DNA from: a virus
Taxonomy: Duplodnaviria; Caudoviricetes
DNA length: 64,000 bases
Virus record (IMG/VR): IMGVR_UViG_3300032038_009890
Location: 96,001 to 160,000 of that record
Strand: one strand, 5' to 3'
Shown here: in pieces, positions 9,276 to 51,698 of the stretch
Numbering within the stretch: the first letter of the stretch is position 1
Layout of the letters: each line of letters starts with the position of its first letter
Translations under genes and position numbers: made by a program
Notes under the pieces: model-generated
What the model saw: only the letters and a program-made list of their open reading frames with translations
Told to the model about the DNA's origin: nothing
Database searches by the model: none

Positions 9276-9292
9276 ACTGTCCTCCTTATTAT

Positions 9293-10177
9293 TTACCAAG
9301 TAATGCCATCACTGCTCTGCTTCGGCTGTACATAAGGAATTACATTCACATCAGTGACCGCATTAGTTACAATATCAATAATCACATCAGAAATGTTATC
9401 CAAATTGGCTTCTTTATAGTTTTCGCCCAAGCAAGAAAACGACTTCTTAATGTTTTCCTTGTCAAATTCATGCACTCCATGATTGACCTGAACATGATAG
9501 ATATCATACTTCGGAATCGTTTCCTTAAGCAGTTTACTTGTCTCAACATCCGCCTCAAGGGCATCTCCAGTAAAATGTCTAAGCTCATCCTTGGGAAGAT
9601 ACGGATTAAGCCTCTCATCACCAATAGTAATAATAATGCCCCTCTTCCCTCGATTCCAACAGTCCAACATGCAATGCCTTGTACCCATATACCATGCGGC
9701 CGTGTATGACTCAAAATAATTCCCGCCGCCTCCAAATTCGAACCAGAGTTTATCTAGCTGTTCTGCAATACGAATGTCTGACTCAAACTGGCTAATCTGG
9801 ATAGGCCCTCTGTCATAAGCAAGATCACCGATACCCATTATACAGAATTCGACATCCTTAATCTTTTCATACAGCGTTGTGATAATAGGATTCAATTTCT
9901 TTGCAATTTCTACGGCACATTGACCTAACGATCCTGTCACATCAAGTGCAAGAATTATAGGTACTGTAAAGGGATGCTCATCACTATCCAGACACTCTCT
10001 CATAACATTCATCGGGTCTAGTTCCTTCTGAATCTTACGGGATACAAACATATCTTGATTGCTAAAGTTTGAGGTAATCGAGCCATCGACACTATAACTT
10101 ACATTTAAACCGCGACTGGTAAATTTGCTAGTAGTATAATCACTAAACGATTTCTTTGTCCATGCTCCGCTACCCAT
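9293..10177 (-). CDS. vWA-domain protein
   Basis: MIDAS-like LDVTGS, GIGD, GGGGN...ESY, IGDE. Confidence 0.8.
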   Translation of the reverse strand: MGSGAWTKKSFSDYTTSKFTSRGLNVSYSVDGSITSNFSNQDMFVSRKIQKELDPMNVMRECLDSDEHPFTVPIILALDVTGSLGQCAVEIAKKLNPIITTLYEKIKDVEFCIMGIGDLAYDRGPIQISQFESDIRIAEQLDKLWFEFGGGGNYFESYTAAWYMGTRHCMLDCWNRGKRGIIITIGDERLNPYLPKDELRHFTGDALEADVETSKLLKETIPKYDIYHVQVNHGVHEFDKENIKKSFSCLGENYKEANLDNISDVIIDIVTNAVTDVNVIPYVQPKQSSDGITW

Positions 10178-11691: not shown

Positions 11692-12441
11692 TTACCATTT
11701 AATACCCCTCTGGCGCTTAGCCTTCTCCAGAATCTCGTTTGCTTCCATATCTCTCGCAGACTGCTCAAGTGCCCTATCCCGCGCCACCTCACTTGTTTCA
11801 TAAGATATCTGTGCCCCCGTGGCGCGTTCTCTGGTCTTCCTAGCCCCCTCTCTAACCTTTTCGAGCATCTTGTCGCTCTCATTTGAGGAGGCATAGGTAT
11901 TAAGTCCCTCATGCAGATTAATAACCTGCTGATCTGCTTCGATCTGGAATACTGTGCGCTCTCTTTCTTCCTTTAGAGCAATAAGGTCAGACTCAATCGT
12001 TTTGCGAGTAATCTCTTGTCGATCACGAGATTTTGTATATTCTTCAATCACACTTTTGAGAGTATCTAGCTTTTGATTAACAGTAGCGAGCTTAAGTGCC
12101 CAAGCTTTTGCGCCATCCTCGTCATTATTATCCAAGCAAGCATTTATGTGATTCTGAATACCAATCGCACTTTTTCGCAGATCATGCTCTTCTTTTTCGC
12201 GCTCTTTAAGTTTTCCTGCAATCTCAGCAAAAGACTTATCAGCTTCAGAAAATAACGCCTCTTTCTCACGGATTGCATTGTTAAAATAATCCCGCGCTCC
12301 TTCAGGAGACATTGCGTCGCGGTTAGCAAGTTCCTCGGTCCTTCCACGGAATTTTACAATTAACTGCTTAACGGCATTACCATTAATGATAATAACAATA
12401 ATACCAACTACTACAAATATAAGTAAGATACTTTTAATCAA
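11692..12441 (-). CDS. PspA/IM30-family protein with N-terminal TM
   Basis: TM segment followed by a long coiled coil (AIREKE...A...L...AK..A). Confidence 0.7.
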   Translation of the reverse strand: MIKSILLIFVVVGIIVIIINGNAVKQLIVKFRGRTEELANRDAMSPEGARDYFNNAIREKEALFSEADKSFAEIAGKLKEREKEEHDLRKSAIGIQNHINACLDNNDEDGAKAWALKLATVNQKLDTLKSVIEEYTKSRDRQEITRKTIESDLIALKEERERTVFQIEADQQVINLHEGLNTYASSNESDKMLEKVREGARKTRERATGAQISYETSEVARDRALEQSARDMEANEILEKAKRQRGIKW

Positions 12442-13020
12442 TTAACTCACCTCTATTCCATACTCTTCACACAACTTAGCAAGACCACCTTCATATCCTT
12501 CACCGATTGCATGAAATTTCCATTCGCTTTTATCACGATACAATTCTGCAACCTTAATTGCAGATGCATTACCAAACTTTTCCTTGAGATTATAGCGAAG
12601 AATCTCTTCTCCCCGGAAGTTATCTACAACACGAATATGTGCGCTATCGATAATTCCAAAATTCTGCATCCTGCGCTCGGCCTCATAAATAGAGACAACA
12701 ATCACAATTCTTTCGGCATAAGTAGGTAATTCGTTAAACTTAACAATAATTACCTCATCATCAACATTTCCGCTCGACCCAGTAGTATTATCTCCGCTGT
12801 GAACAATACTACCATTATGAGACTTTTTGTTCCCATAAAACACAAAGTCATCTTCATAGCGAGTAAGACCATTCTTTTGCAGAATATAACAGGACGCGTC
12901 AAGATCATATTCATCTTCGGAATATTTTGATGATGACCACCCAAGGCCAATGGAAATATCATTAACTACAACATCCTTAGATAACGATACCACATCATTC
13001 TTATTTAACGAAACAGACAT
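12442..13020 (-). CDS. terD: TerD-family protein
   Basis: GLGW, DLDAS, FVFYGN, HSGDNTTG, DDE, WKFHAIGEG. Confidence 0.9.
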   Translation of the reverse strand: MSVSLNKNDVVSLSKDVVVNDISIGLGWSSSKYSEDEYDLDASCYILQKNGLTRYEDDFVFYGNKKSHNGSIVHSGDNTTGSSGNVDDEVIIVKFNELPTYAERIVIVVSIYEAERRMQNFGIIDSAHIRVVDNFRGEEILRYNLKEKFGNASAIKVAELYRDKSEWKFHAIGEGYEGGLAKLCEEYGIEVS

Positions 13021-13670: not shown

Positions 13671-14273
13671 TCAGACGTTCAGGCCGTACATATAGACAAG
13701 CCTCTCCAGACCACTGCGCTCAACACCATCCGCACCTTTTTCCTTGCCATAACCCTTACCGATAGCGGTAAACTTCCATTCGCCGTTATACCGGTAAAGT
13801 TCACCCATAACCATGGCCGTCTCCGTGGAATAATCCTCGCTAAGATCATAGCGCATAAGCTCCTCATTCGTAGCTTCATTTACAATACGAACGTAGGCAT
13901 TCTGTACCATTCCAAAATTTTGCATACGATTCTCGGCATCATAAATAGACACAGTAAAATCGATCTTTTCGATGTCCGCAGGGACCTTGTCTAACTCAAC
14001 ACTAATAACTTCATCATCTCCACTGCCCTCGCCAGTAAGGTTATCACCGCAGTGCTTTACGGCTCCCGAGTCGTGCTGAAGGTGATGATAATAAACCATG
14101 TCACCTTCAATCCTTGCCTTGCCGTCGGCATTAAGCAGGAAGGCACAAGCGTCCAGATCAAATGCTCCATCATCAAAACGGTTTACGTCCCATCCAAGGC
14201 CAATACGCAGACTCTTAAGACCTGAATTGCCCTTAGTTAAATCAACTTTCTGTCCCTTTACAAGATTAATCAT
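13671..14273 (-). CDS. terD: TerD-family protein
   Basis: [39 protein letters not shown]. Confidence 0.9.
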
Positions 14274-16902
14274 TATTCTTTCTCCTTACAAAATATTTTC
14301 TTACAAAGTCAATAGGTACGATCAGCAGAGATAATCCACAGATCACAGCCCACTGCAAACCGCTTAGTGCAACACAACCCACGAAACTCTGCGCAAACTG
14401 TACAAGCGCAAAAGTAGAAGCGAAAATCAGGATTGCAATTACAACAAAGAGCGGGTTTTTACTAATTCCTTTGAACAAATTAAATCCATCAGTACGGATA
14501 TTAAACCCATTCACAACGGCCACAAAGATCAGCAGAGCAAACCTAGCAGATGCATATACTTCTTCTGTTGGGAAAATAGCTCTGATCTGTGGAACAAATG
14601 TCAGCCCAAAGATAGCTAAGAATCCCACGATAGAAACAGCAATCTGAGAGATGGTTTCTTTTGATAATAGCTTACTACCCTTTGGAATAGGTTTCTCTAG
14701 CATATACTCAGCCTTAGCAGGTTCCCCGCCGAAACTCAGGGAATTCAGCGAGTCCATTACTATGTTCACAACCAGAATTTGTGTTGCAGTCAGTGCTTCA
14801 ACAACAAGAATCAGCGGATAAAAGATACTCAATACTACCAAACCAATGTTAATAGGCAACTGGAACTTGAGAAATTTCATCACGTTGTGCATAAAGGTTC
14901 GGCCCAGAAGCACTGCTCTGGTAATAGAAACAAAATTATCATCTGTGATAATAATATCTCCCGCCTCTTTGCAGACATCTGTTCCACTTCCCATACTAAA
15001 ACCTACATCCGCACCTTTTAAAGCTGGCGCATCGTTACTACCGTCGCCTCCCATCCCACAACATATCTTACATTCCTGAGCTAACCTTACAACTCTTAGC
15101 TTAGTGTCAGGCGTAGCCCTAGCAATCACCTTAATATTCTTTAAGTTTTCCTTTACATATTCATCAGCAAGATTCGCAAACGTAGTTGCCGTAAAAGCCA
15201 GATCCTCGCTATTAGGCGTATAGATTCCGCAATCTGTAGCAATCGCAACAGCAGTATCAAGTACATCACCAGTAATCATCATCACCTGTACTCCCGCATC
15301 ATGCATCTGCTTTACGGCGTCAGGAACCTCGGGCCTAATATCATCTCGAATAGCCACAAAGCCAAGATATACTAAGCCGTCATTCATTTCATCTTCAAGA
15401 TCATATTCTGTTACAGCAAATGCAATACATCTCATGGCTTTAGATGTATACTTCTTGATCTCTGCTAATACCTTTTCCTTATCAAATTCTCCGTATTTTT
15501 CAACTTCGAATACTTGCGTACACTTTTCTAGGATCTTCTCAGGAGCGCCTTTATAATAAGTAGCTTTCTGTGTCTGTACAGCACTATACTTCCAAGCACT
15601 GTTAAACTCTTTCTTTTTAATTACCTCAGAACGATTAATAATCCCAATATGTTCTGTCGGAGAAGCCAAACTTAATAACGCTCTATCAGTTGCATTACCG
15701 CCAACAATATTTCCTTCAGAATCAAACGTAGAACTAGAATTCATCACAACGTTATTCATAATAACATTATACAATTTAGTTCCTTCTCTTATCTCGTCTC
15801 CATCATATCCAATCAGATGTACGGGCACTAGCTTGCCACCAGTCAACGTTCCAGTCTTATCCGTGCAGAGTAACTGAATATTCCCCGCTTCAGGAATCTT
15901 ATTTGCGTTCTTTGCCAGAACATTATTCTTAATCATTAAATTAGCATTTTGTGCTGTTAATATCTTGATGATAGCTGGCAATCCTTCTGGCACGGCAGCC
16001 GCTATAATAGTCAGAGCATTCTCAACAATTACGCCTAACCTTAAAAATACTTCCAAAACTCCAAGCGTAAAGAAAGAAGAGCATCCTCCAAACTTTAATA
16101 TCTCAGATGTGAGCAACACAACAAATACTATAATAGCTCCAATATATCCAAATTTAGAGATCTGGTCTGCCAAATCATCTAATTGAATCTGAAGCGATGT
16201 TTTCGTTTCTTCAATCTCATCAATGCTTTTAATTGTCTTTCCGTTTACAGTGCCGGGATAGGTTTCTGTGCCAATGCCGACATTCGTAACGACCATCTTA
16301 CCTTCGCCTTCAGTTACTAAAGTTCCGGCAAAAAGACTATATTCATCAGTATAATCATCGCCAGTAGGTACACGAGTCTGCGCATTATACGGGCATGTAT
16401 CATCTTCCCAGGCGATTTTTTTACAATCCTTAGATTCTCCGTTAAGTACAGAGTTATCAACCTTAAGATGACCATCAATAAGATAACCATCCGCATAAAT
16501 CTGTTCTCCGCTCTGTAACAGTACAATATCACCAACAACAAGGTCGTTTGTGTTAATGTTTTGTATATTTCCATTGCGTAAGACATTACAGAATCTAATT
16601 GATACCTTATCCTTTAACTTTTTTGTTTCTCGCTGATCTTTTAGCCCATTATATGTATTCAATCCAGCGATTATCAAAATCACGCATCCAAGACTCAAAG
16701 GTTCTGGTACTGACCCATGACCAATTATAGCCACGAAGACAAACATAACCATTAACAACAGTAACAGACGATTTATTTTATCCTGAAAAGTCTCCGCAAA
16801 AAACTTGTACCACTTCTTTAGCGGTTTCTCAGGTAACTTATTGGTGCCGTATTTCCTTCTTTGTTCTGCTACATCGGATTCTTTTAAACCCTCGTAATTC
16901 AA
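14266..16902 (-). CDS. P-type cation (Ca2+-type, P2) ATPase
   Basis: PEGL, DKTGT phosphorylation site, KGAPE, MITGD, GDGSND; multiple TMs. Confidence 0.92.
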
Positions 16903-16991: not shown

Positions 16992-19211
16992 TCATTCATA
17001 GTTTTCATAAAACTTATCCCGTAAAGTAATAATATCTAGTCCAAGCAGACTTTCTTTATCTTCCGTCTCGTCATACATCTTGCGAAGGAAACCATAAAAC
17101 TTATTATCAAGCTCATTGATCAACTGCCCAGTGCCCTCGATGTATCCGCGCCGAAGAGTAGTGCTTGCAATACTCCTCATGCGTTTCCAAAAATTATAGT
17201 ATTCGGTCTTAACTTTAAACATCAAATTTCCAGAGTCCTCAACGACAAAGCCTTCTACATATTCTCCAAGAAGTTTATATCCCTGCTTCTGTACCGCGCT
17301 ATACCACTCACAGAATTCTTCCCAATTGGTGATATTACATACCTTGCGTTTATGTGTTAATCCAAACTTAACAGCAAGGTCAACCATATCATTATAAGGT
17401 AATTTGTTAAACACAATATCATTCTTTACAATGTCAAGCAAAATGATATTATGATTCAAATATTTAATGATATGCGGGTCCTTCTCAGAATCTTCCACTT
17501 CAAATACGAAAGTACAATCATTATCTTTCAGATACTGAAGAATATTCTTACGAGCATCTTCTGTAGTTACCTCAAAGAAAATCTCCTTAAACCATCCTGC
17601 ATACTCTCCTCCTACCATAGATTTGGTACAGTAACGGAAATCATCTGCATACTCATCATATGAGAGCATTCCAAGGAATCCATTTTCTTTTACATATACA
17701 GATATTGGATACTTAATTACATCCTTTAATTCAGCAAACGTAGGGCAAATAGTACCATCTAAATAGGACATTTTCAAATATCCACGTGCACATACTTTGA
17801 TTCTATTTAGATCGATGAATAATCCTCTCGCATGGACTGTTAAATTATTCCAAATACCTTTCTTAAATGCATCACTTGAAAAGTTAAATGAGCTAATATT
17901 ATTCTCAAATTTCTTCTCGTGGATATACTTACTCGCTCTCATGTCAAGAACAAGCTTCGCCAAATCACTGGAGTTAAGCGCATTCTGAAGCTCGAACTCT
18001 TCTTTCTTACGGAATACCGTATTCTTAATCTCAATCGGCTTAAAGCCTTCGTGATCAAGCTCAACTACACGCAAACATCCGCCAAATTCAACCCTACCCT
18101 CCAGATTAAATACATGCGGAGTCACATGAATCTCAGATGCCTGTGTATTCCTGTGTCCGAAAATCTGATAAACTCCTCCAGACTTTTCTTCCCATGCGTT
18201 AGCCACGTCCAGATAATCTTCATATCTCCCAACACCCTTAATCATCTGCTCGGATGCGACTAAAGTCACGTTCTCGGGCATAAAAGAAATACCTCCATGA
18301 CAAACGAAGACTTCTTTATCATGGAATTTATACCAAGCACACTGAACAAGCTTATAATACAATCTGCTCAAATCTTTCTTATCAAAGTTGGCACTGTTCA
18401 GCTGATTCTTAGTCACCCATTCAAATTCACGGGACTTTGCAGGAATGTCATGTGCATAATTGTATATTGACACCTCATGGTTACCTGTTAGTAGTAATAC
18501 ATTTTTCTTATCTTTAATTTCAAGAAGATACTTAAGTACCTCAACATTCTCAACACCACGATCAAGATAGTCACCTAAAAAGATATAAAACACGTCATCT
18601 TCTAATTGACCGTGAAGATACTTCTGCAATACCGTATAACATCCATGCACATCTCCAATATGCACAATTTTCCGATAGTTAGACAGATCAATAGGTTTAA
18701 GCCAAATCTGTTCAATGTCTTCCCCTGTGACATTGCACGGGTCTTTAGGTTTAATCACAGTAATACCAGACGGCACTTTCTGCGTCTCAAACCGCGCATA
18801 CATTTTGTCATCTACGTCATCGGGAACCCTTTTAAGTTCCTCCCTCTGCGCATTCCGTGCTTTACATACATCAATCGGAATGCCAGTTAAATCAAGCAAA
18901 TAAATCCTATACCTATATTTAGACGCAAGATTCTTATACTTATTCATCTCTTCTGATTTAGAATTCGTTGCATCAATTACAGTAAACTCCCCTGCTTGCA
19001 TACGAATCTCTAAAAGCTTAAAGAGCATATCCCAGACCACTTTTTCATGACTAAAGCCAATCTGTACGGAGCCATTTGTGGTCTGTTGAGGAGACTGGCA
19101 CAGCATACGTATTTCATCTGCGCACAATCGATAATTTTCTAGTCCAAGCTTCCTGATAATGGTACTTTTCCCCGCTCCAGGAGCGCCTCTAAACAATAAT
19201 AATACTCTCAA
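16992..19211 (-). CDS. Pnkp-type RNA repair enzyme: polynucleotide kinase + calcineurin-like phosphoesterase + Rnl1-like ligase
   Basis: GAPGAGKS/DATN kinase; GDVHG, GDYLDRG, GNHE, HGG, GH phosphoesterase; KENG, EGFVV, FKVK nucleotidyltransferase. Likely TTG start at 19211 overlapping the upstream stop. Confidence 0.85.
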   Translation of the reverse strand: MRVLLLFRGAPGAGKSTIIRKLGLENYRLCADEIRMLCQSPQQTTNGSVQIGFSHEKVVWDMLFKLLEIRMQAGEFTVIDATNSKSEEMNKYKNLASKYRYRIYLLDLTGIPIDVCKARNAQREELKRVPDDVDDKMYARFETQKVPSGITVIKPKDPCNVTGEDIEQIWLKPIDLSNYRKIVHIGDVHGCYTVLQKYLHGQLEDDVFYIFLGDYLDRGVENVEVLKYLLEIKDKKNVLLLTGNHEVSIYNYAHDIPAKSREFEWVTKNQLNSANFDKKDLSRLYYKLVQCAWYKFHDKEVFVCHGGISFMPENVTLVASEQMIKGVGRYEDYLDVANAWEEKSGGVYQIFGHRNTQASEIHVTPHVFNLEGRVEFGGCLRVVELDHEGFKPIEIKNTVFRKKEEFELQNALNSSDLAKLVLDMRASKYIHEKKFENNISSFNFSSDAFKKGIWNNLTVHARGLFIDLNRIKVCARGYLKMSYLDGTICPTFAELKDVIKYPISVYVKENGFLGMLSYDEYADDFRYCTKSMVGGEYAGWFKEIFFEVTTEDARKNILQYLKDNDCTFVFEVEDSEKDPHIIKYLNHNIILLDIVKNDIVFNKLPYNDMVDLAVKFGLTHKRKVCNITNWEEFCEWYSAVQKQGYKLLGEYVEGFVVEDSGNLMFKVKTEYYNFWKRMRSIASTTLRRGYIEGTGQLINELDNKFYGFLRKMYDETEDKESLLGLDIITLRDKFYENYE

Positions 19212-19408
19212 AAAGCACTGCCTTCCCACCCGCATTCAAAGCATTTATAAATATGCTGTGGCGGATTTGTCATTAGTAATTGAAATTCATTACGATATAT
19301 GCGATTTTTACATATAGGACATTCAATCTTTGTATACATCCATTCCACTGGATTATTGATTGTATCATTCCTAAACTGAATATACTTATCCCACTCTATC
19401 ACCATCAC
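19208..19408 (-). CDS. Small Zn-ribbon protein
   Basis: CPIC...TNPPQ...CFECGW. Confidence 0.6.
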   Translation of the reverse strand: MMVIEWDKYIQFRNDTINNPVEWMYTKIECPICKNRIYRNEFQLLMTNPPQHIYKCFECGWEGSAF

Positions 19409-23403: not shown

Positions 23404-24294
23404 TTAATGTGCATATACATCTGCGTTGTGCAGAATCATAACGTCATCATAGAACTCAGTTCCGTATCTCTTAATAAATTTTCTTTCAGCCTTTTCATCA
23501 CCATTCCAGAAATATGGGTCCATATGATGGCACACAAGATTACTTACATATAGCGTATCAGCGTTATACTTTTCGCAAGCAAAGAATAATGTCTCATAGC
23601 CGCCCACATTATGATGATAATAGTAATGCACTCTTAAATCATCATCATAGCTCTTTGTATACGGTTTTCCGCAGTCATGTAATAATGATGCAACTGCTAC
23701 AGATATATCAGTATCCTTTTCACCCACATGTAGATAATGATTGTACACGTGATGAAACGTCATTGACAGATGCCTACCAAGCGAAGCAGTGTGATGCTTA
23801 GACTCCTGATTATATTGATCTAAAAAGAATGTCAGATCTGTGGGGTCTCCATTGGAGGTCATCCACTCGGACCTGTCGTAATGTATCCAAATCTCATCCC
23901 ACCCCTCCCAATAGCCGGGGGTATACCAAGATTCATAAGCCTCTTTGACGTGTTTCATTTCTCCAGAAAAGTTTTTACAGCAAATATTATAAGGTGTTGC
24001 AATGATAATGCAGATTTTATATACATCATTAAAACTGCCGACAACATTGTTAATTAGATACCTACGGCTCTTTTCTTTTACATTTGAAGCATCGACAACA
24101 CAATCACTGCCGCATGATATTATTGCCTTTATCTTATCATAATATTTATTGTATACTACTGTTTCGTCGGTGATTCCCTGATCATTTAATTTTTTCCTTA
24201 TATCACCAATTGATACAACCTCAGCCCCAATAGTACCTGCATAGGCACTTTTCCCAGAACCCGGAAGACCCACCATAGCATATAATTTAGGCAT
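23404..24294 (-). CDS. AAA_33 kinase fused to HD phosphohydrolase
   Basis: GLPGSGKS, DASN, EGW; HH...H, LHDCGKP, HH..VG, HHM, AD..AH. Confidence 0.85.
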   Translation of the reverse strand: MPKLYAMVGLPGSGKSAYAGTIGAEVVSIGDIRKKLNDQGITDETVVYNKYYDKIKAIISCGSDCVVDASNVKEKSRRYLINNVVGSFNDVYKICIIIATPYNICCKNFSGEMKHVKEAYESWYTPGYWEGWDEIWIHYDRSEWMTSNGDPTDLTFFLDQYNQESKHHTASLGRHLSMTFHHVYNHYLHVGEKDTDISVAVASLLHDCGKPYTKSYDDDLRVHYYYHHNVGGYETLFFACEKYNADTLYVSNLVCHHMDPYFWNGDEKAERKFIKRYGTEFYDDVMILHNADVYAH

Positions 24295-26944: not shown

Positions 26945-27234
26945 CTTCTTACCTCATACTAACTTGCGAAATTCAAATACTTCTCCGCATCTACCACACT
27001 TCACTCTTCCGCTAGTACCTATGCCAGTAGGATAAAACATATACTTATACCCTCCACCAGAAACGTCATGACAATGATTTGCGGGTAAAATCATATCCCC
27101 ACTTCCATTCTAACGATTTAGATAAAACGCTATAAACCACAAAAGGGAAGACACCCATTCTCTGCATCCGAATAGTATGTCTTCCCTCTTTTTTATATTT
27201 GATTTAATTATGTTGTTATCACGCATCCAAGTAT

Positions 27235-27331
27235 ATTTCAATCCATACGCTTATACAGGTTATTTCTGGAGGTGTTGCCGGGTCAGCTCTGCTATCCAAA
27301 TTTTAATCTATACGTTTATATAGATTATTTC
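27235..27331 (-). CRISPR. Candidate two-repeat CRISPR mini-array (type I-C-like repeat), no cas genes
   Basis: 32-nt repeats at 27235-27266 and 27300-27331 (27/32 identical) flank a 33-nt spacer; minus-strand repeat ends TGGATTGAAAT. Confidence 0.45.
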
Positions 27332-27399
27332 CCCGGATGCTTACTCTTTTGTTCCTCAGTAGGATAAGTCTGCATTTCCTTTTGGCCTGATAAGCTAAA

Positions 27400-27476
27400 C
27401 TGGCGTGGCTCGGACCGAACGAGCATCTCACGGGGTTGGCTCCCATGCGCATTAGTCCTTTTTATGCTACACGCCA
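27400..27476 (-). tRNA. Atypical tRNA (possibly Trp-CCA) or pseudo-tRNA
   Basis: Acceptor TGGCGTG/CACGCCA, T-arm GCTCG-TTCGGTC-CGAGC; non-canonical anticodon loop AGCCAAC. Confidence 0.45.
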
Positions 27477-27564
27477 AATGAGGGATGTTTAAGCTTTGTT
27501 ACACCCCCAAAACCTTTGCCTATTAATAACCTAGTACTAGTTCGGCAGAGCGTCCTCTGCCTAA

Positions 27565-27639
27565 TGCGCCTAGTGGGTTATGCTCCCACGACCTCTACCC
27601 TTAGACTGGTAGCGCTCTCTCTTACTGAGCTATAGGCGC
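27565..27639 (-). tRNA. tRNA with 8-nt anticodon loop AGTCTAAG (CTA suppressor or Arg-TCT)
   Basis: GCGCCTA/TAGGCGC, D GCTC/GAGC, anticodon stem CTACC/GGTAG, T-arm GTGGG-AGCATAA-CCCAC. Confidence 0.65.
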
Positions 27640-27754
27640 GATGGCTGACCTTTTCACATACTCCTGCGCACTGATGTATGCGATCAAGGGATTATACTGG
27701 CTCAGCCCAACCACTAAAAAACTATATAGCTTCGGCAGGATGTCCCCTGCCTAT

Positions 27755-27866
27755 ATCACGGGTGAGGATTTGCACCTCGCATGGGCTAAAGGCTCATATG
27801 TCCTTCGCAAGCATCGGATCAAGCGGCTCTTACCTTATAAGCGTCTACCTATTCCGCCACCGTGAT
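27755..27866 (-). tRNA. Leu/Ser-type tRNA-like RNA with expanded, unassignable anticodon/variable region
   Basis: TCACGG/CCGTGA stem, GGCGGAATAGGTAGACGC D region, GAGG-TGCAAAT-CCTC T-arm; ~110 nt. Confidence 0.5.
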
Positions 27867-27918
27867 ACTACATTTAATACTAACCTATGAAGCAATTCAT
27901 TTAAGGCACACTGCCCAA

Positions 27919-27988
27919 TTATCATCTCTCGATTCGAACGAGAATCTCTCACCCCCGTAGAGTATGTTACCAATTACACCAGATGACA
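27919..27988 (-). tRNA. Degenerate pseudo-tRNA
   Basis: TGTCATC/GATGATA, D-loop AATTGGTA, T-arm TCTCG-TTCGAAT-CGAGA; broken anticodon arm. Confidence 0.45.
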
Positions 27989-28069
27989 AATTATGACAAT
28001 AAATCCTCACGACCACCGAGCAGGCGGCAAGTTACAATTTAATTTTCCCTTGTAAATACAGGGGAAACG

Positions 28070-28208
28070 TACTCCCAGTTGGATTCGGACCAACGACACA
28101 CGGCTTAATCCTCGCTACTGGTTCTGCCCCAGTATTTCGAATTGCGTTTTCCTTAGTTAAACTAAGCGAAGTAAGGCCGCCGCTCTAACCTGACTGAGCT
28201 ATGGGAGC
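28070..28208 (-). tRNA. Interrupted tRNA (Ile-TAT or Lys-TTT) carrying a nested tRNA-like insert in its anticodon loop
   Basis: Outer GCTCCCA/TGGGAGT, D GCTC/GAGC, anticodon stem GCGGC/GCCGT, T-arm GTTGG-TCCGAAT-CCAAC; inner element at 28109-28171. Confidence 0.75.
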
Positions 28209-28474
28209 ATAAAATCCAGTGCAGATAACGCCTGTAGGTTCGCCACCTGCACCAGATGCGTCCGAAAAGCAATCTTATTCCCGAAGAATTATCATTATTC
28301 AATTTTAAATTTTTAATTAGAATTCAATTACATTATCTTGCCGTTACTTGATAACGCACCTCCCTTTGTAATCACAGACAACAAAGTTACAGCTGATAAT
28401 GAATCATAGCCATACTAGTCCAAATGCATTCACATTTTTTCTATTCAAATTTCTTTAGATTTTATATGGCTAAA

Positions 28475-28564
28475 CGCCAACGGCAGAACTCGAATCTGCA
28501 CGCCGCTCTCACGGTTACTACGGCTTTTCAAGAGCCGTACCTTACCAATTAGGTTTACGTTGGC
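28475..28564 (-). tRNA. tRNA-Ser(TGA)
   Basis: GCCAACG/CGTTGGC, CGGCT-CTTGAAA-AGCCG, long variable arm, G73. Confidence 0.85.
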
Positions 28565-28671
28565 ATAAAATGTTGGCGGGAACCTTGTACTTCTGCTCCT
28601 CTTTAATGCTCATTAGCAAACCAACAAAATCTTTCGTCTGCACCTGCTTTGCCCTTACAGAGTGCAAACAG

Positions 28672-28752
28672 TACCCGTAGGCGAATTCGAATCGCCACGC
28701 TAAAAGCCAAGGATTCTAAGTCCTTTACGTCTGCCAGTTCCGTCATACGGGC
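28672..28752 (-). tRNA. tRNA-Leu(TAG)
   Basis: GCCCGTA/TACGGGT, AAGGA-CTTAGAA-TCCTT, variable arm, A73. Confidence 0.88.
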
Positions 28753-28893
28753 ATACTCTTACATCCCATTACTCGCCTACCCCTTGCAGTTCCGGTCACC
28801 CAGTAGACCCATCTCCACGCGCCAATATGCCGTCTTACAGGATAGCTACTCCCCATAAGCTAATAGACACTTGCCCTCACAGGATGTAAGAAA

Positions 28894-28969
28894 TGCTTCG
28901 GTCTCGATTTGAACGAGAATCAGTGTGATCAGCACTGGTTTTATCCGCGTACTATTAAACTACCTAAGC
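28894..28969 (-). tRNA. Atypical tRNA-Ile(GAT)
   Basis: CAGTG-CTGATCA-CACTG, T-arm TCTCG-TTCAAAT-CGAGA; enlarged D-loop, 2-nt variable region, one acceptor mismatch. Confidence 0.55.
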
Positions 28970-28974
28970 AGATT

Positions 28975-29000
28975 TAGCTTTTGAGCGGAGCTATAACCGC
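28975..29000 (-). ncRNA. H-type pseudoknot PK1 (preQ1-I-like)
   Basis: GCGG-TTA-TAGCT-CCGC-TCAAA-AGCTA. Confidence 0.55.
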
Positions 29001-29003
29001 AAC

Positions 29004-29078
29004 TAGGCACTGTACCACAAGCAGAAAGGAAATACCATATATCTTTGTTCTTCATAAAATATTTGCTGTATGTGCCTA
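29004..29078 (-). ncRNA. ACAGCAA-helix RNA element A
   Basis: TAGGCAC-ATACAGCAA...GTGCCTA. Confidence 0.65.
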
Positions 29079-29148
29079 TCAAATATATTTAGTTGTCTCA
29101 TTTAGAATAACCCCTACCTGCTCTCACAGTTTATTTATACTCATCATC

Positions 29149-29262
29149 TAGGTGCATATCTGCTCTAAGCAGAAGGGGTTATTACTTTTAAGTCGCAGAG
29201 TTTTCCGCTATATTTTCCTGTACATTATTGTAATGAAATTAAAATTTTGCTGTATGCACCTA
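29149..29262 (-). ncRNA. ACAGCAA-helix RNA element B
   Basis: TAGGTGC-ATACAGCAA...GCACCTA. Confidence 0.65.
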
Positions 29263-29264
29263 AA

Positions 29265-29378
29265 CGCATGGGACAGGGATCGAACCTGTATCTTTCGCGG
29301 GACAGGCGATATAATATTTGCTGATTATGACTATTGCTAGCCACGTTTTAACGTTCTAACCAATTAAACTACCCATGC
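29265..29378 (-). ncRNA. tRNA-Asp(GTC)-like RNA with inserted ACAGCAA-helix (element C)
   Basis: GCATGGG/CCCATGC with G73, D-arm, insert GTGGCTA-GCAA-TAGTCAT-AATCAGCAA, TCGC-CTGTCCC-GCGA, ACAGG-TTCGATC-CCTGT. Confidence 0.7.
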
Positions 29379-29381
29379 ATA

Positions 29382-29463
29382 GGGGAGGATGTAAGAAATC
29401 GAACTTATGAGTATATGCTGTAACTGTCTGCCTAGACAGTGCCACCCTTGGCTCCATCCCCCC
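29382..29463 (-). ncRNA. tRNA-like RNA whose anticodon arm is the ACAGCA-helix (element D)
   Basis: GGGGGGA/TCCTCCC, ACTGTCT-AGGC-AGACAGT-TACAGCA, TAAG-TTCGATTT-CTTA. Confidence 0.6.
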
Positions 29464-29471
29464 ATAAAAAC

Positions 29472-29580
29472 TAGATACCGTTTGACTTGGGCGCGACTCC
29501 AAGATTTCTCCCTAGGGGAGCGTCCTACGCATTTAGACTATATGTTCCGTGAAACATCCGATAACTGCTGTAGGTATCTA
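29472..29580 (-). ncRNA. ACAGCA-helix element E enclosing D/anticodon/T-like arms
   Basis: TAGATACC-TACAGCAG...GTCT/GGAC, CTCC/GGAG, CTTGG/CCAAG...GGTATCTA. Confidence 0.6.
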
Positions 29581-29584
29581 TATA

Positions 29585-31114
29585 TTAGATAATCCCTTTC
29601 AGCGCCGCATCAACGGCGTCATACCGAGGACTGTTAATAGTATCAAGTAAAACATCATACGGGTCCATACGATCACTCATGACCATCCGCAGAAGCTGAA
29701 CAGAAAAACCAGAGCAAAGTACAAGACCATTTTCATTTTTCTGCATCGGCATCGTCTTATCTACTTCTCCAGAGAGATTCCAGAAGATGATGCGAGGCAG
29801 TTTATATCCATGCATCTGATATTTACGAGAAATACTCTCAAAAATTGTATTAATCCTAGAAGGTGCATATACAGCTTGGTTAAACTGCATATCACTAAGG
29901 ATAATAACTCTGCTCGGCATCTCATCCTGCTTATAGCCATTACTAATAGCTGTTTGCAGAATAAGGTCCATCGTTTTCTCAATATCAGTATCTGCCACCT
30001 CGGAATGCTTAAAGAAATACTCGATCTTTTCGCGGAGGCTATTGCAGTTACTCAGGTCAAAAAACTTCGGCCTATTGGAAAAAGAAAGTACAAGATTTTT
30101 CCAATCGTCGCTGTTATGCTCCGACGTATAAACAGACAGAGCAATCGCAACATCAAAAGGTCTAACCTTAGTACGGTATCCAGGCTCACACATCGAGGAT
30201 GAGGTATCACATACTACAAGAGTATCTCCAATCCCCATCTGCGGCAATGCCTTCCACAGCTGTTCTAGCGTCTCATCATACGCATTGATGTTTGGCCTAT
30301 ACCAACTATAGCCATAGTTGATATAGCTATTGACGATCTCATGAGGCTGAAGCACACCTGCATTGATTTTAGTCTCTCCCTTTGTTAGCGACTGCAGATA
30401 AGTTGCGCGCCTCTCTTCGTCATGCCGCATAAAGGCCTTACCATAAATCAGGTTTGCCCTAGACGGCACAGCAGAGTAGTTGATCTCGCCCCATTTCTGC
30501 GCAGACATCTTTGACTCGACCAGATCGAGCGTCTTCCGCATGGCAGAAATCTTTTTTCTATACCTTGCAGGAGTAATGCCCCAAGCGTCAATAAAAATCC
30601 CTGCGTAACGTTTCGTCTCACGCGAAGATGCGACACAGCTAGGAAGCCACTTAACTAGTAAGCTGATCGGCTTACCTTCCTTCAGCGCTTCATAGTCCTT
30701 GTCAAGCTGAACGCCAACAAGGTCAATCACATCCTGCTTGAGCGGAGTATCCAGAAACGGCCATAGATCCTTCCATCGCCCGTACTCAGGGAATAGTGGA
30801 AGCAGTGCCTTAACCACGGCAGGACGATTTTCGACCAACCACTGCATACAGGTGATAAATGTCCTTCTCTCGCCCATGCCTTCACGACAGTCACGTAAGA
30901 AGAACAGGTATTTTACACCAACATGCGGATCCTCATAGAATGCCGCCTGATACATGTTGGCAATGTACTCTTCACTCTGCTCACGTAGTCCAGTCGTTGC
31001 GAAGTTAAAATCTAATAGCGCATGACCAGATGACTCATAGGCCAATGCACCGTTTTCAGTCAGCGTCTTCTGCTGATTCAGCTGACTTTTTAAACCAGTA
31101 GCAAACTTATTCAT
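29585..31114 (-). CDS. DUF2828-family TROVE/Ro60-like protein with C-terminal vWA domain
   Basis: TENGA, RDCREGMGER, EYGRWKDL, KWLPS, VPSRA, DTSSSM (MIDAS), SDMQF, FWNL. Start moved to ATG 31114 behind GAAAGGA. Confidence 0.85.
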   Translation of the reverse strand: MNKFATGLKSQLNQQKTLTENGALAYESSGHALLDFNFATTGLREQSEEYIANMYQAAFYEDPHVGVKYLFFLRDCREGMGERRTFITCMQWLVENRPAVVKALLPLFPEYGRWKDLWPFLDTPLKQDVIDLVGVQLDKDYEALKEGKPISLLVKWLPSCVASSRETKRYAGIFIDAWGITPARYRKKISAMRKTLDLVESKMSAQKWGEINYSAVPSRANLIYGKAFMRHDEERRATYLQSLTKGETKINAGVLQPHEIVNSYINYGYSWYRPNINAYDETLEQLWKALPQMGIGDTLVVCDTSSSMCEPGYRTKVRPFDVAIALSVYTSEHNSDDWKNLVLSFSNRPKFFDLSNCNSLREKIEYFFKHSEVADTDIEKTMDLILQTAISNGYKQDEMPSRVIILSDMQFNQAVYAPSRINTIFESISRKYQMHGYKLPRIIFWNLSGEVDKTMPMQKNENGLVLCSGFSVQLLRMVMSDRMDPYDVLLDTINSPRYDAVDAALKGII

Positions 31115-31128
31115 TACATTTTCCTTTC

Positions 31129-31209
31129 TAGACGCACAAATTTGATGGATTTGAACCATCTTAAAACACGTATGTTTTGTTATCCAGAATATTTTGCTGT
31201 ATGCGTCTA
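31129..31209 (-). ncRNA. ACAGCAA-helix element F with T-arm, abutting the DUF2828 RBS
   Basis: TAGACGCA-TACAGCAA...GATGG-TTCAAAT-CCATC...TGCGTCTA, then GAAAGGA. Confidence 0.7.
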
Positions 31210-31212
31210 TAA

Positions 31213-31331
31213 TCGAGAGAGGAGGAATTGAACCTCCGCTTGCGGACCCAAGGCGTCATAAATTTGCTGTTAGTGACTATTAAAGTCACGTTATAGACAT
31301 TTCCGCCGTACTACCACTATACCATCTCCCG
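31213..31331 (-). ncRNA. tRNA-Pro(TGG)-like RNA with inserted ACAGCAA-helix (element G)
   Basis: CGGGAGA/TCTCTCG with A73, GCGGA/TCCGC, insert GTGACT-TTAAT-AGTCAC-TAACAGCAA, CTTGGG, GGAGG-TTCAATT-CCTCC. Confidence 0.7.
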
Positions 31332-31337
31332 TAAAAC

Positions 31338-31404
31338 TAGGCGCGTTTTTTGGGTGTTAGTTTAAAAAGCTAATCCAGAAATTATGTTTTGCAGTATGCG
31401 CCTA
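31338..31404 (-). ncRNA. ACAGCAA-helix element H (ACTGCAA variant)
   Basis: TAGGCGC-ATACTGCAA...AAAC-GCGCCTA. Confidence 0.6.
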
Positions 31405-31408
31405 TAGT

Positions 31409-31441
31409 TGGTTTTTGTTAAAGCAGAACCATAACTGCTTT
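31409..31441 (-). ncRNA. Pseudoknot PK2
   Basis: AAAGCAG-TTA-TGGTT-CTGCTTT-AACAAA-AACCA. Confidence 0.55.
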
Positions 31442-31495
31442 GGTGTGTGCAACACCAGATCAAAAAAGGAGGGAACAAATAAAAAGACAGATAAA

Positions 31496-31568
31496 CAGCC
31501 TGTCGGGTAGTCGAAACCCGCTTTTTTGGATGAAAACCAAAGATTCTAAACCGCTAAACTAACAGGCC
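31496..31568 (-). tRNA. tRNA-Glu(TTC)
   Basis: GGCCTGT/ACAGGCT, TTTGG-TTTTCAT-CCAAA, CGGGT-TTCGACT-ACCCG. Confidence 0.75.
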
Positions 31569-31572
31569 ATAT

Positions 31573-31604
31573 CTAGCTTTTTTTAAAGCGGAGCTAGAAC
31601 CGCT
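31573..31604 (-). ncRNA. Pseudoknot PK3 (closest to preQ1-I)
   Basis: AGCGG-TTCTAGCT-CCGCT-TTAAAAAAA-GCTAG. Confidence 0.6.
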
Positions 31605-31632
31605 GTCACCTTGGAAAGGGGCACAGCCCCAA

Positions 31633-31704
31633 TAGCCCCTGCGGGTTATGCTCCCACTTCATATCTGTGAAAGAGATATATCATAGCTATTAGACTAAGG
31701 GGCC
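31633..31704 (-). tRNA. tRNA-Glu(TTC), second copy, AGCATAA T-loop
   Basis: GGCCCCT/AGGGGCT, TATCT-CTTTCAC-AGATA. Confidence 0.7.
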
Positions 31705-31843
31705 AAATAAAGTAGTCACCACGATTTGTGACAATAAATCGATTCGTGGGTCGCAACACTGCGTGAACAATAGTTACTAGAGCGTGTTTGTGGTGACTAC
31801 CCAAGATATTGATACGACAGGTTTCAAAGTTGCCACGCTCTAA

Positions 31844-31905
31844 ATAGGACAGGAGGAATTGGACCTCCATCTGTCGAAACCGCTCTACCATTGAGCTATG
31901 TCCCA
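31844..31905 (-). ncRNA. Anticodon-less tRNA-like RNA
   Basis: TGGGACA/TGTCCTA, GCTC-AATGGTA-GAGC, anticodon arm reduced to GT-TTCG-AC, GGAGG-TCCAATT-CCTCC. Confidence 0.7.
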
Positions 31906-31909
31906 TTAT

Positions 31910-31949
31910 GCGTAGCTTTTGATAAAGCAGAGCTACGCTAGAACTGCTT
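31910..31949 (-). ncRNA. Pseudoknot PK4
   Basis: AAGCAG-TTCTA-GCGTAGCT-CTGCTT-TATCAAA-AGCTACGC. Confidence 0.55.
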
Positions 31950-31997
31950 CGTAACAGACAACCCATTTCTTGGAGGATCGAATAAAAGACAGTGGAA

Positions 31998-32068
31998 CAG
32001 CGGATGCAGGTGATGCTCCTGCGCCTTTGGTGTCAAAGACCAACTTGCTACTGTTACACCAATCCGCT
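31998..32068 (-). tRNA. tRNA-Gln(TTG)
   Basis: AGCGGAT/ATCCGCT, TTGGT-CTTTGAC-ACCAA, G73. Confidence 0.75.
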
Positions 32069-32141
32069 ATTTGTCTTGAATCTATCTATAATTTCTCTAA
32101 TTGGCGAGTCAAGATAATTATAGCTGTCATTCAAGGTTTAG

Positions 32142-32228
32142 TACAGGTGAAGGGATTCGAACCCTCGATAATTCCTATAGAATTGACGGATTAAAAGTCC
32201 GTTGCCATGGCCACTAGGCGACACCTGC
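32142..32228 (-). tRNA. Class-II-shaped tRNA with Lys(TTT) anticodon
   Basis: GCAGGTG/CACCTGT, ACGGA-CTTTTAA-TCCGT, variable stem AATTC/GAATT, A73. Confidence 0.75.
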
Positions 32229-32393
32229 ATGATTTCTGGCTACTAAACCCTCGCGGGAAAACGTTCACCAGAAAATCCGTTTTTTCTTAGTAAATAGCAT
32301 TAGTGTTAATTATCGTCTGTAACATAAATCTTTGGAGCTTCGCTCCATTTTCTACACGCTATGTAGTTTTCAAGGATCAGGGGTACTACTAAA

Positions 32394-32458
32394 ACAAAGC
32401 GGAGGAAGTCGAATCCTCAACCTGCGCATCAGTGCCGCTCTCCGAGAGCTACACTTCA
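32394..32458 (-). ncRNA. tRNA-like RNA with shrunken anticodon arm
   Basis: GAAGTG/CGCTTT, GCTC/GAGC, GCAC-TGAT-GCGC, GAGGA-TTCGACT-TCCTC. Confidence 0.5.
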
Positions 32459-32624
32459 TAAAAATCGTCTACCAAAACCCTCGCGGGAAACAGTCAACGA
32501 TCAATCTGTTTTTTACAAAACGAAACAAACACAGAAGGAAATCAAAATGAAGAAAAACTTCTTCACCCCTACGGTAACTGCCCCGTCACCGTTCTTTTAC
32601 ACCTCACTTCTCAACACGAGGACT

Positions 32625-32653
32625 ATTATACGCATATCCGACCCTCCTGTCAA
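32625..32653 (-). promoter_or_regulatory. Sigma-A promoter of the tRNA/ncRNA island
   Basis: TTGACA-N17-TATAAT. Confidence 0.85.
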
Positions 32654-32672
32654 TAGTTTACGCCTGTAAGTT

Positions 32673-32936
32673 TTACTTCTCCTCCGAGAACATGATCATA
32701 TAATCGTTACCCTTACAGGTAAACTCATATACATCATAGCTCTCATCATACTCAGCATTATCATCAATCTCAATCATCATATCTATAGTGTTATTTTGTG
32801 CAGATAAAAGATTCTCAAACATCTCTACGTCACTAGGCGCAAACCATGCATGCAATATCTGGTTACCATTATTGTCATATACATAGATGTGCAAAAAACT
32901 ATATTTGCCCTCTGAAATGCGCTCGGATAAATTCAT
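32673..32936 (-). CDS. Acidic hypothetical protein
   Basis: AAGGAG RBS; coherent ORF. Confidence 0.55.
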   Translation of the reverse strand: MNLSERISEGKYSFLHIYVYDNNGNQILHAWFAPSDVEMFENLLSAQNNTIDMMIEIDDNAEYDESYDVYEFTCKGNDYMIMFSEEK

Positions 32937-32974
32937 TGATAAATAACTCCTTTCTTAAACACAGGGAGCCTACC

Positions 32975-33898
32975 TTAAAGATAGGCCCCATACTTCTGCA
33001 AATACATATACGGTATATTTGGTGACATATTGTATTGCGCGCGTAACTCATCAAAATGATTCATTACATATTGCTCTTTACTGATACCCAACTTCTCTGC
33101 ACGTCTAGTAATCATTGCAATCTGCCCAGACACAGCAATAGATGTGCTGTTGATGCCCTTATACAGGTTATAATTATCAGCAATCTGTTTAAGTATCTTT
33201 GCAACAATCTTATTATTATGCAAAGGATCGTTACTATACTGGTTAGCATTAGTAGCCTTCTTAAAGATATATTCAGATGCTCCTAAACGCTTCTTCTTCC
33301 CAGATACAACTAGCAGATACTCTAACTCAATATCTGCTTCTACTGCAACACTCACTAGCTTACTAGATACCTTAACTACGCGCCCAGTGCAAAGAGATAT
33401 AGTCAGATTCTTCTGATCAATATCAGAAAGCTTCATTTGCATTATCTCATCATAGTGCGATGTTTTTCCAAACTCAAAGAGACACAGCATCAGAAACTGA
33501 TCTCTTGGATTAACAATCCTCTCAACTACTTCATAAAATTCAATCTCATCAATATACCTTTTACTCTCCAGAACTTTGTTTATGTACATCGAGAAGTCTT
33601 TTGATGTAAATTCTGAGTAATGATTACATCCGTCCGGAACCAGTAACTGCTGATTGCACCACTCAGTATAACCGCTCAATCGACTATTAAGTGTTTTATA
33701 AACAAACTCATTAGAGTAGCAAAGCGCAGAGTAAAAATCTCCGATCTCACGGTTACTAAACTCGGCACAATCTCTGCCAAATAACTCCTCAAAAGGTGCG
33801 ACACGTATAAATGCCGACATAAGATTAGTTACATATGTAGGAGAGTACTTAGTCTCACATAAATCCAAATAACGTTGCTTCTGCTCGGCATTATACAT
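32975..33898 (-). CDS. Integrase-fold protein lacking the catalytic HxxR; SPbeta YopR/MrpR(SroF)-like master repressor
   Basis: MYN...K..YL start (ATG 33898, GGGAGG RBS), N.RD...L.FE.G, SI..SG.I; lies directly after the YopQ-like gene. Confidence 0.65.
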   Translation of the reverse strand: MYNAEQKQRYLDLCETKYSPTYVTNLMSAFIRVAPFEELFGRDCAEFSNREIGDFYSALCYSNEFVYKTLNSRLSGYTEWCNQQLLVPDGCNHYSEFTSKDFSMYINKVLESKRYIDEIEFYEVVERIVNPRDQFLMLCLFEFGKTSHYDEIMQMKLSDIDQKNLTISLCTGRVVKVSSKLVSVAVEADIELEYLLVVSGKKKRLGASEYIFKKATNANQYSNDPLHNNKIVAKILKQIADNYNLYKGINSTSIAVSGQIAMITRRAEKLGISKEQYVMNHFDELRAQYNMSPNIPYMYLQKYGAYL

Positions 33899-50639: not shown

Positions 50640-50753
50640 TGTAATATCCTCCTCAGATTGTAAAAAGTAGTTTTGTGAACCAAATGGGCGCAGAGGAATC
50701 GAACCTCCAAGGGCAGGGATTGCTCACTCCCCGCCCCGCACCAACAGCCCTAC

Positions 50754-51086: not shown

Positions 51087-51184
51087 AGTCTTACACTCCT
51101 GTTGTTTTGATGATGGCTTTTAAAAAACCGAATGGGGAAGGGGGATTGAACCTCAGAAGAGCATCCACGCTCCCCCGGTTGTAG

Positions 51185-51652: not shown

Positions 51653-51698
51653 GTTTATTCTTCCCCTTTCATGTCATCTTCACAGAGGAGAGGCCCTT

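Follow-up and report, generated by a model that had tools for sequence, protein, structure and literature searches.

To our knowledge, the known tRNA introns of bacteria and their viruses are all self-splicing, and tRNA introns removed by enzymes are characteristic of archaea and eukaryotes, whose bulge-helix-bulge consists of two 3-nucleotide (nt) bulges with a 4-base-pair (bp) helix between them and whose exons are joined by RtcB or Trl1. Closest to the case described here are the "enigmatic" introns in the anticodon region of Lak megaphage tRNAs, for which it was noted that the intron "itself may encode a tRNA" (Devoto et al. 2019, Fig. 4, PMC6784885), a remark made again for jumbo phages in a 2026 survey (PMC13037316). 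We analyzed a stretch of 64,000 nt (hereafter the window), which corresponds to bases 96001-160000 of the phage record IMGVR_UViG_3300032038_009890 of IMG/VR (217 kb, 37.6% guanine plus cytosine [GC]), and in which a tRNA-Ile(UAU) gene carries a tRNA-shaped unit of 63 nt inside its anticodon loop. This kind of element is not wholly new, and it is barely described. We propose, with a little less than even confidence, that the gene is split between anticodon positions 35 and 36 by a 64-nt intron (the tRNA-shaped unit plus one base), which would be spliced through RNase P, an RNase Z-like cut, and a phage ligase.

The original prediction, made from the sequence alone, had described an intact outer cloverleaf with a long insert in its anticodon loop, and this description holds: the outer tRNA gives a full-length match to the Rfam tRNA model (RF00005, 48.9 bits for a gathering score of 29, model positions 1-71), with 67 bases in the anticodon loop where the model expects 3, and ARAGORN, with introns allowed, calls one tRNA with a 64-nt intron over the same interval (Table 1). 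The anticodon loop of the gene is thereby 71 nt long instead of 7 and becomes CTTATAA only after the loss of 64 nt; as had been pointed out, removal of exactly the 63-nt unit leaves an 8-nt loop, and one extra base must also leave. The 5' part ends in GCGGC-CTTA, the 3' part begins with TAA-GCCGT, and the inner unit between them reads CTTCGCT / TA / GTTT-AACTAAGGA-AAAC / GCAATTCGAAAT / ACTGG-GGCAGAA-CCAGT / AGCGAGG / A, i.e., a 7-bp acceptor, U8 and A9, a 4-bp D arm, a 3-bp mini-hairpin replacing the anticodon arm, a 5-bp T-like arm, and a discriminator-like A, with no anticodon arm and no CCA. Each of the helices originally listed for this tRNA without an anticodon arm pairs as stated, and a dedicated scanner returned exactly this parse in the window. 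Where the outer and the inner tRNA meet, two helices flank an internal loop of 4 x 5 nt. The unspliced junctions read GGCCTTACTTCGC and GAGGATTAAGCC, and the joined-exon junction expected after splicing is GGCCTTATAAGCC.

The inner fold is not a product of chance, because only 6 of 200,000 shuffles of the 71-nt loop gave any such loop-spanning parse. Its support is comparative, since single-sequence folding of the whole element was not significant (z = -1.74) and the inner unit alone (28106-28174) gave no match to the Rfam tRNA model at E <= 10. The minimum-free-energy structure picks another hairpin in the D region (CTTAGT/ACTAAG), which is lost in the related contig L008. A covariance-type score of 61.7 bits with model R1 is by construction, the sequence being in the R1 training set. 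No known small ribozyme or group I intron was matched in Rfam at E <= 1 in positions 27000-33000.

The gene belongs to a cluster of tRNA and tRNA-like genes on the minus strand (~27400-32460), arranged around the gene of a 524-amino-acid DUF2828/DUF7788 protein. Syntenic phage contigs in ENA and Logan assemblies (designated by L numbers) were reached through DUF2828 homologues of 52-61% identity. In these contigs, nested tRNAs were detected by ARAGORN with introns allowed and by the scanner, which requires complete pairing of the acceptor (7/7), of a T stem (5/5) that immediately precedes the acceptor 3' strand, and of a D stem (4/4) from base 10 (background of ~17 matches per 434 kb of shuffled genome). 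Conservation in relatives, on which the original prediction had agreed to be judged, was found in the form of seven further nested tRNAs in six related contigs, bringing the total to eight in seven contigs, with a tRNA-Ile(UAU) as the outer tRNA in five and a tRNA-Gln(UUG) in three. All eight inner units share the same build (7-bp acceptor, U8 and A9, D arm, a 3- to 5-bp mini-hairpin for the anticodon arm, a 5-bp T arm with a 7-nt loop, and one discriminator-like base), and in sequence they belong to four or more unrelated types, whose T loops are GGCAGRA, TGCAAGA, TGCAATT, and TTCAAAT. The shuffle odds range from 1.5e-5 to 4e-4 per unit. Moreover, the tRNA tertiary positions U8, A14, G53-C61, and C56 are kept in all eight units and A21 in seven, and the Gln-type unit of L029 matches the Rfam tRNA model (33.3 bits, E = 4e-6) with ends exactly at the assigned boundaries.

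A sequence-only MAFFT alignment was made of 12 sequences, namely the eight inner units and four free-standing mini-tRNAs of these islands, and RNAalifold predicted from it exactly the same three helices. In this alignment, 15 of 16 base pairs covary, with pairing kept through changes on both sides, and 98.4% of the cells pair versus 59% after shuffling and 39-48% with partners slid, with the proviso that the four free-standing members had been chosen by a scanner requiring pairing; the eight nested units were not chosen by pairing, as they are all the ARAGORN intron calls of 63-67 nt in these loci. Even inner units unrelated in sequence share the tRNA-like shape. Pairing is also complete in the outer helices of the eight genes: all 56 acceptor cells, all 40 cells of the anticodon stem, and all 40 of the T stem pair, and most positions show compensatory changes; by this measure the outer genes are not decaying. 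Altogether, the feature seen in the window is real, conserved, and under selection.

The point of insertion was fixed by uninterrupted orthologues, a check proposed at the outset. A tRNA with the loop CTTATAA occurs in the same island of five relatives (L003-L007), which places the insertion between anticodon bases 35 and 36; the L006 copy is identical at 61/74 positions (82%) to the window exons joined after removal of 64 nt, and the two have the stretch CGGCCTTATAAGCCGT in common. The five interrupted Ile genes all read CTTA, inner unit, A, (T or A), TAA, and CTTATAA is the only 7-nt loop possible for all of them. The base after the discriminator-like A varies among these orthologues (T, A, A, A, T) and, on this comparison, behaves as intron sequence. 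In the three nested Gln genes, the inner unit is preceded by CTT and followed by N and TGAC, and L004 has one further C. Their half-loops CTT and TGAC agree with the uninterrupted tRNA-Gln loops, CTTTGAC in L003, L006, and L028 and ATTTGAC in L027, except for the first loop base of L027. Read against these empty sites, the insert splits the anticodon at 35/36 in Ile and at 34/35 in Gln. Between the two identities first offered, Ile-UAU is borne out by the five uninterrupted relatives, and Lys-UUU (CTT+TTAA) is ruled out, three of the five Ile orthologues having ATAA and the uninterrupted ones CTTATAA. Val-UAC (CTTAC+AA) was ruled out as well, because the L029 inner unit starts with G. ARAGORN found no second tRNA-Ile(UAU) in the genome, in whose long reading frames AUA makes up 26% of the Ile codons.

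The insert looks mobile, since its history and that of the outer tRNA are discordant in pairwise sequence comparison. Inner units are 92% identical between the Gln genes of L004 and L029 and outer tRNAs 63%; between the Ile genes of L008 and L002, the inner units are 76% identical and the outer tRNAs only 53%, with different D arms; conversely, L002 and L029 have similar outer tRNAs (74%) and different inner types. In L004 and L008, whose flanks are near-identical, the Ile site is uninterrupted in the former and interrupted in the latter. Other exchanges were seen along the same two contigs (~9100-9350 and 11900-12100), where spacers are near-identical and whole tRNA cassettes differ at the same sites: the Gln site is nested in L004 and plain in L008, and the Leu(UAA) site is plain in L004 and holds a group I intron in L008. 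None of the inner types was found as a free-standing copy. DNA searches of IMG/VR, JGI metagenomes, GTDB genomes, and GenBank phages found no similar element, and exact and degenerate DNA patterns gave nothing real in IMG/VR, JGI metagenomes, and GTDB genomes; one loose pattern had 18 matches, which were rejected as chance because every one lies within coding sequence. In blastn against GenBank phages, the matches were confined to the 5' half, which is generic, of genes for tRNA-Ile, Asn, or Thr.

The leader released by RNase P ends in a 3'-OH, the trailer released by RNase Z starts with a 5'-phosphate, and ends of exactly these two kinds are joined by Rnl1 in the tRNA anticodon loop. We propose a model in which the precursor would fold as two stacked tRNA shapes, host RNase P would cut at the first base of the inner unit and leave a 5' exon ending in CUUA with a 3'-OH, and an RNase Z-like cut one or two bases beyond the inner acceptor stem would leave a 3' exon with a 5'-phosphate. 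With both exons kept together by the outer acceptor and anticodon stems, the Rnl1 domain of the phage kinase-phosphoesterase-ligase could then seal the nick, yielding a 75-nt tRNA with the loop CUUAUAA that would read AUA codons. The freed inner unit would be a mini-tRNA built like those that stand free in the island and might have a job of its own, possibly in a ribonucleoprotein. The 5' boundary lies exactly at base 1 of the inner unit, i.e., at the RNase P site, in all eight genes, and in the Mycobacterium smegmatis RNA YrlA, an embedded module of tRNA-like shape, whose acceptor stem has 7 bp, is known to be cut by RNase P (PMC4201824). Our literature search found no paper demonstrating the splicing of such introns.

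An Rnl1-type ligase domain had also been announced for this phage, and it is indeed present. The open reading frame, a fusion of polynucleotide kinase (P-loop type), metallophosphoesterase, and ligase, matches RNA_lig_T4_1 in Pfam (4.8e-29, 102 bits for a cut-off of 28.3) together with AAA_33 and Metallophos, and its catalytic motifs are intact (GAPGAGKS, GDVHG, GDYLDRG, GNHE, KENG at residue 516, EGFV at 661, and KVK at 674). It holds the only Rnl1-family domain of the 217-kb genome, in single copy; RtcB, an Rnl2-type ligase (PF09414), a CCA-adding enzyme, and an archaeal-type splicing endonuclease (PF01974) were sought in the phage genome and none was found. The ligase gene is syntenic in L002, L003, L004, L008, and L027, and it is found in synteny in 5/7 nested-bearing contigs, the sequence of the other two ending short of the region. 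The fusion gene of L008 (15777-19080) is interrupted by a LAGLIDADG-type gene and falls into three reading frames, an arrangement that suggests an intein or intron. A second protein of RNA-end-healing type (23404-24294, minus strand), with an AAA_33 kinase and an HD domain, is encoded between the tRNA island and the ligase gene and is syntenic in relatives, and a P-type cation-transporting ATPase of 878 amino acids (14266-16902, minus strand), also present in the phage of L002, adjoins the ligase gene.

Several observations weigh against splicing as proposed. One concerns the 3' site: a strict RNase Z cut after the discriminator fits a 7-nt loop in only two of the eight genes (L005 Gln and L029 Gln), and in the other six (the five Ile genes and L004 Gln) it would give an 8-nt loop, so that one more base must go. 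Either the cut is made one base further on, or another nuclease acts there, or the loop has 8 nt. The original idea of a tRNA-shaped intron cut by RNase P and RNase Z is thus supported in its intron-like behavior and at its 5' boundary and fits poorly at its 3' end. The outer anticodon stem, moreover, is only 4-5 nt from both cut sites. The T loop of the window unit, GGCAGAA, is non-canonical, and together with the missing Rfam match of this unit it makes recognition by RNase P and RNase Z uncertain. Finally, L003 has the ligase and no nested tRNA in its 21.5-kb locus, and the presence of the ligase therefore proves nothing specific.

A non-decoding role, which would also count against splicing, is plausible because the island is full of tRNA shapes with a broken anticodon arm around a Ro60-like gene. 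The 139-nt RNA could remain unspliced, as a stable two-headed tRNA mimic whose outer tRNA serves as a scaffold without decoding, e.g., by associating as partner or client with the Ro60-like protein, whose gene is 1.4 kb distant; we regard this as rather unlikely. Several tRNA-shaped RNAs of the island, including the free-standing mini-tRNAs, have deleted or replaced anticodon arms, and the adjacent DUF2828/DUF7788 protein has a predicted Ro60/TROVE fold: with a predicted local distance difference test (pLDDT) value of 76, the 13 best PDB matches of its predicted structure are all Ro60/TROVE (E 2e-7 to 3.5e-4), among them the Ro60 of Thermus phage phiLo. This likeness comes from the fold search only, the DUF2828 family profile having no match among PDB sequences. 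By tblastn, homologues of the protein occur in 696 GenBank phage records from many host genera, and an IMG/VR search for related loci with the Ro60-like protein found no locus. Ro60 binds Y RNAs, bacterial Y RNAs have tRNA-like domains, and Ro60 partners with such domains are known from bacteria and phages (PMC4201824). The element shares with Y RNA and YrlA a nearby Ro60-fold gene and a tRNA-like module; its ends, however, form an ordinary acceptor stem that varies freely among orthologues and not a conserved Ro-binding helix. An unspliced RNA also leaves unexplained that the half-loops CTTA...TAA and CTT...TGAC are exact in all eight genes while every surrounding stem has changed, and that uninterrupted alleles exist at the same locus. 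The free-standing mini-tRNAs imply that no scaffold is needed, and the element lacks the hairpin+ACAGCAA module (described below) of the RNAs flanking the Ro60-like gene.

The gene could instead be a carrier of the inner mini-tRNA, which cuts of RNase P and RNase Z type would free while the outer halves are discarded. The inner units are indeed built like the free-standing mini-tRNAs and, in some pairs such as the Gln genes of L004 and L029, are better conserved than the outer tRNAs. We find this improbable, since it explains neither the exact keeping of the anticodon half-loops nor why the outer gene is always a tRNA-Ile(UAU) or tRNA-Gln(UUG) with a perfect cloverleaf, and it would leave the genome without a tRNA-Ile(UAU) although AUA is common. 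A selfish small insertion that inactivated a tRNA gene, now a decaying pseudogene, would agree with the patchy distribution in close relatives and with the discordant histories of insert and host gene, but it is very unlikely given that outer and inner helices pair in all eight genes with compensatory changes and that this is the sole tRNA-Ile(UAU) copy of the genome. The decoy for anticodon nucleases of host defense considered in the original prediction, although the phage has a complete enzyme of the type that counteracts such nucleases by healing and sealing RNA ends, is hardly credible, because the insert disrupts exactly the loop that they read and the conserved half-loops suit a spliced product better.

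The same islands hold other unusual tRNAs (Table 1). The free-standing mini-tRNAs have intact acceptor, D, and T arms, and a 2- to 6-bp hairpin with a UUCG- or GNRA-type loop stands for the anticodon arm. At L028 14095-14220, for which ARAGORN calls a tRNA with a 40-nt intron, two mini-tRNA halves are apparently domain-swapped, in the order acceptor 5' A, D arm, T arm, acceptor 3' B, AAATA, acceptor 5' B, D arm, T arm, acceptor 3' A. In a second kind of tRNA insert, a hairpin of 6-9 bp precedes ACAGCAA, and the whole is located either within the anticodon arm or 5' of it; this module is an extra arm and not an intron, because the loop CTTTTAA is still intact in L005 11694-11814. A tRNA-Lys(UUU) of the window (32142-32228, minus strand) has a 15-nt hairpin in its variable region, which is unusual for a Lys tRNA. 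L006 has a HEARO RNA (12459-12670, 110.9 bits) beside an HNH/RRXRR gene within its tRNA island. Outside the window, at G000 C1 177847-178131, ARAGORN calls a tRNA with the anticodon CUA and a 197-nt intron, which could be a candidate amber suppressor with a group I-sized intron. Another ARAGORN call, a "tRNA-Gln" with a 1772-nt intron (50683-52555), spans protein genes and was rejected as false.

Table 1. Positions of the nested tRNA genes and of associated features in the window and in related phage contigs
Feature	Location	Strand	Basis or remarks
Whole interrupted tRNA-Ile(UAU) gene, 139 nt	Window 28070..28208	-	Rfam tRNA match and ARAGORN call of a 64-nt intron
5' exon, 37 nt	Window 28172..28208	-	Acceptor 5' strand, D arm, anticodon-stem 5' strand, loop CTTA (positions 32-35)
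Inner tRNA-shaped unit, 63 nt	Window 28109..28171	-	Scanner parse, shuffles, covariation
Single extra T between inner unit and 3' exon	Window 28108	-	Flank comparison, uninterrupted loops
3' exon, 38 nt	Window 28070..28107	-	Loop TAA (36-38), anticodon-stem 3' strand, variable loop, T arm, acceptor 3' strand, A73
Nested tRNA-Ile	L008 11952-12094
Nested tRNA-Ile	L002 13799-13939
Nested tRNA-Ile	L027 3755-3895
Nested tRNA-Ile	L029 5638-5779
Nested tRNA-Gln	L005 8971-9105
Nested tRNA-Gln	L004 9196-9333
Nested tRNA-Gln	L029 2130-2266
Kinase + metallophosphoesterase + Rnl1-type RNA ligase fusion, 747 amino acids, candidate sealing enzyme	Window 16992..19235	-	Pfam
Ro60/TROVE-like protein gene (DUF2828 + DUF7788)	Window 29585..31159	-	Pfam and predicted structure; in the middle of the tRNA island
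Free-standing mini-tRNA, UUCG mini-hairpin for anticodon arm	Window 31844..31905	-	Rfam tRNA 45.8 bits, 4 nt replacing 13; scanner; R1 58 bits (R1 training member)
Second free-standing mini-tRNA-like RNA	Window 32394..32458	-	Scanner; R1 45.6 bits (R1 training member)
Free-standing mini-tRNA	L004 12058-12121
Free-standing mini-tRNA	L005 9447-9511
Hairpin+ACAGCAA tRNAs, among others	Window 29265-29378, 31213-31331	-
Hairpin+ACAGCAA tRNAs, among others	L002 9700-9821; L003 9733-9848; L005 11694-11814; L007 9727-9845

Beyond the single gene, we suggest, as a possibility that we would sooner doubt than accept, a protein-less mobile class of tRNA-shaped introns that would home into the anticodons of phage tRNAs, be cut out by the tRNA end-processing enzymes of the cell, and be resealed by the phage Rnl1 ligase, each event freeing a mini-tRNA that works with the Ro60-like protein. 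If splicing occurs as we propose, it would add to self-splicing and the bulge-helix-bulge endonuclease a third splicing route for tRNAs, in which RNase P, RNase Z, and an RNA ligase are together able to act as a splicing machine. It would also give the phage "RNA repair" ligases a routine job and show a way for a tiny gene-less element to spread between tRNA genes. As a test system the locus is compact: the substrate has 139 nt, there is only one candidate gene for the ligase, empty-site alleles exist, and the element comes in an Ile and a Gln version.

Compared with known systems, the insert resembles group I introns in its location within the anticodon loop of bacterial-type tRNA genes and in its patchy, mobile-looking distribution, and a true group I intron is present in the tRNA-Leu(UAA) of the same phage group (L008, Rfam Intron_gpI). 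Unlike group I introns, which are usually >140 nt, it has 64 nt, no P3-P9 core, and no RF00028 match, and its conserved feature is the tRNA shape. With archaeal and eukaryal introns, it has in common its short length, its place in the anticodon loop, and a removal presumably by protein or ribonucleoprotein enzymes and a ligase instead of self-splicing. It differs from them by the lack of a bulge-helix-bulge, by its position (35/36 in Ile or 34/35 in Gln, not 37/38), by the lack of a splicing endonuclease or RtcB gene in the phage, and by the predicted ends, 3'-OH and 5'-phosphate in place of cyclic phosphate and 5'-OH.

T4 Rnl1 seals an anticodon-loop nick in a tRNA otherwise held together. 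As in the T4 Pnkp and Rnl1 pair and in bacterial Pnkp, the enzyme of the window phage is an Rnl1-family ligase associated with kinase and phosphoesterase modules; its phosphoesterase belongs to the calcineurin type, like that of bacterial Pnkp, whereas T4 has another type. In T4, sealing is a repair after attack by a host nuclease, whereas here it would be a routine step of maturation. Embedded tRNA-like signals for RNase P and RNase Z processing are known from the MALAT1 mascRNA and from mitochondrial tRNA punctuation. YrlA of M. smegmatis also has a tRNA-shaped module with a 7-bp acceptor inside a longer RNA, where RNase P cuts (PMC4201824). Unlike in the model proposed for the nested genes, the flanks are not rejoined in these three cases, and the containing RNA is not a tRNA.

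Nearest of all are the Devoto introns, which are likewise short, lie in the anticodon region of phage tRNAs, may themselves be tRNAs, and have intron-less alleles in relatives. Here too, the insert sits in the anticodon loop of a phage tRNA and is tRNA-like from its first base, and intron-less alleles mark the point of insertion. In both reports (Devoto et al. 2019; PMC13037316), the introns are the subject of a remark, without structural analysis, mechanism, or covariation. The window phage (217 kb, 37.6% GC) has no sequence relation to anything found in IMG/VR or GenBank phages, and its inner unit, unlike the Devoto introns, has neither an anticodon arm nor a CCA, is built like the free-standing mini-tRNAs, and is located near a Ro60-like gene.

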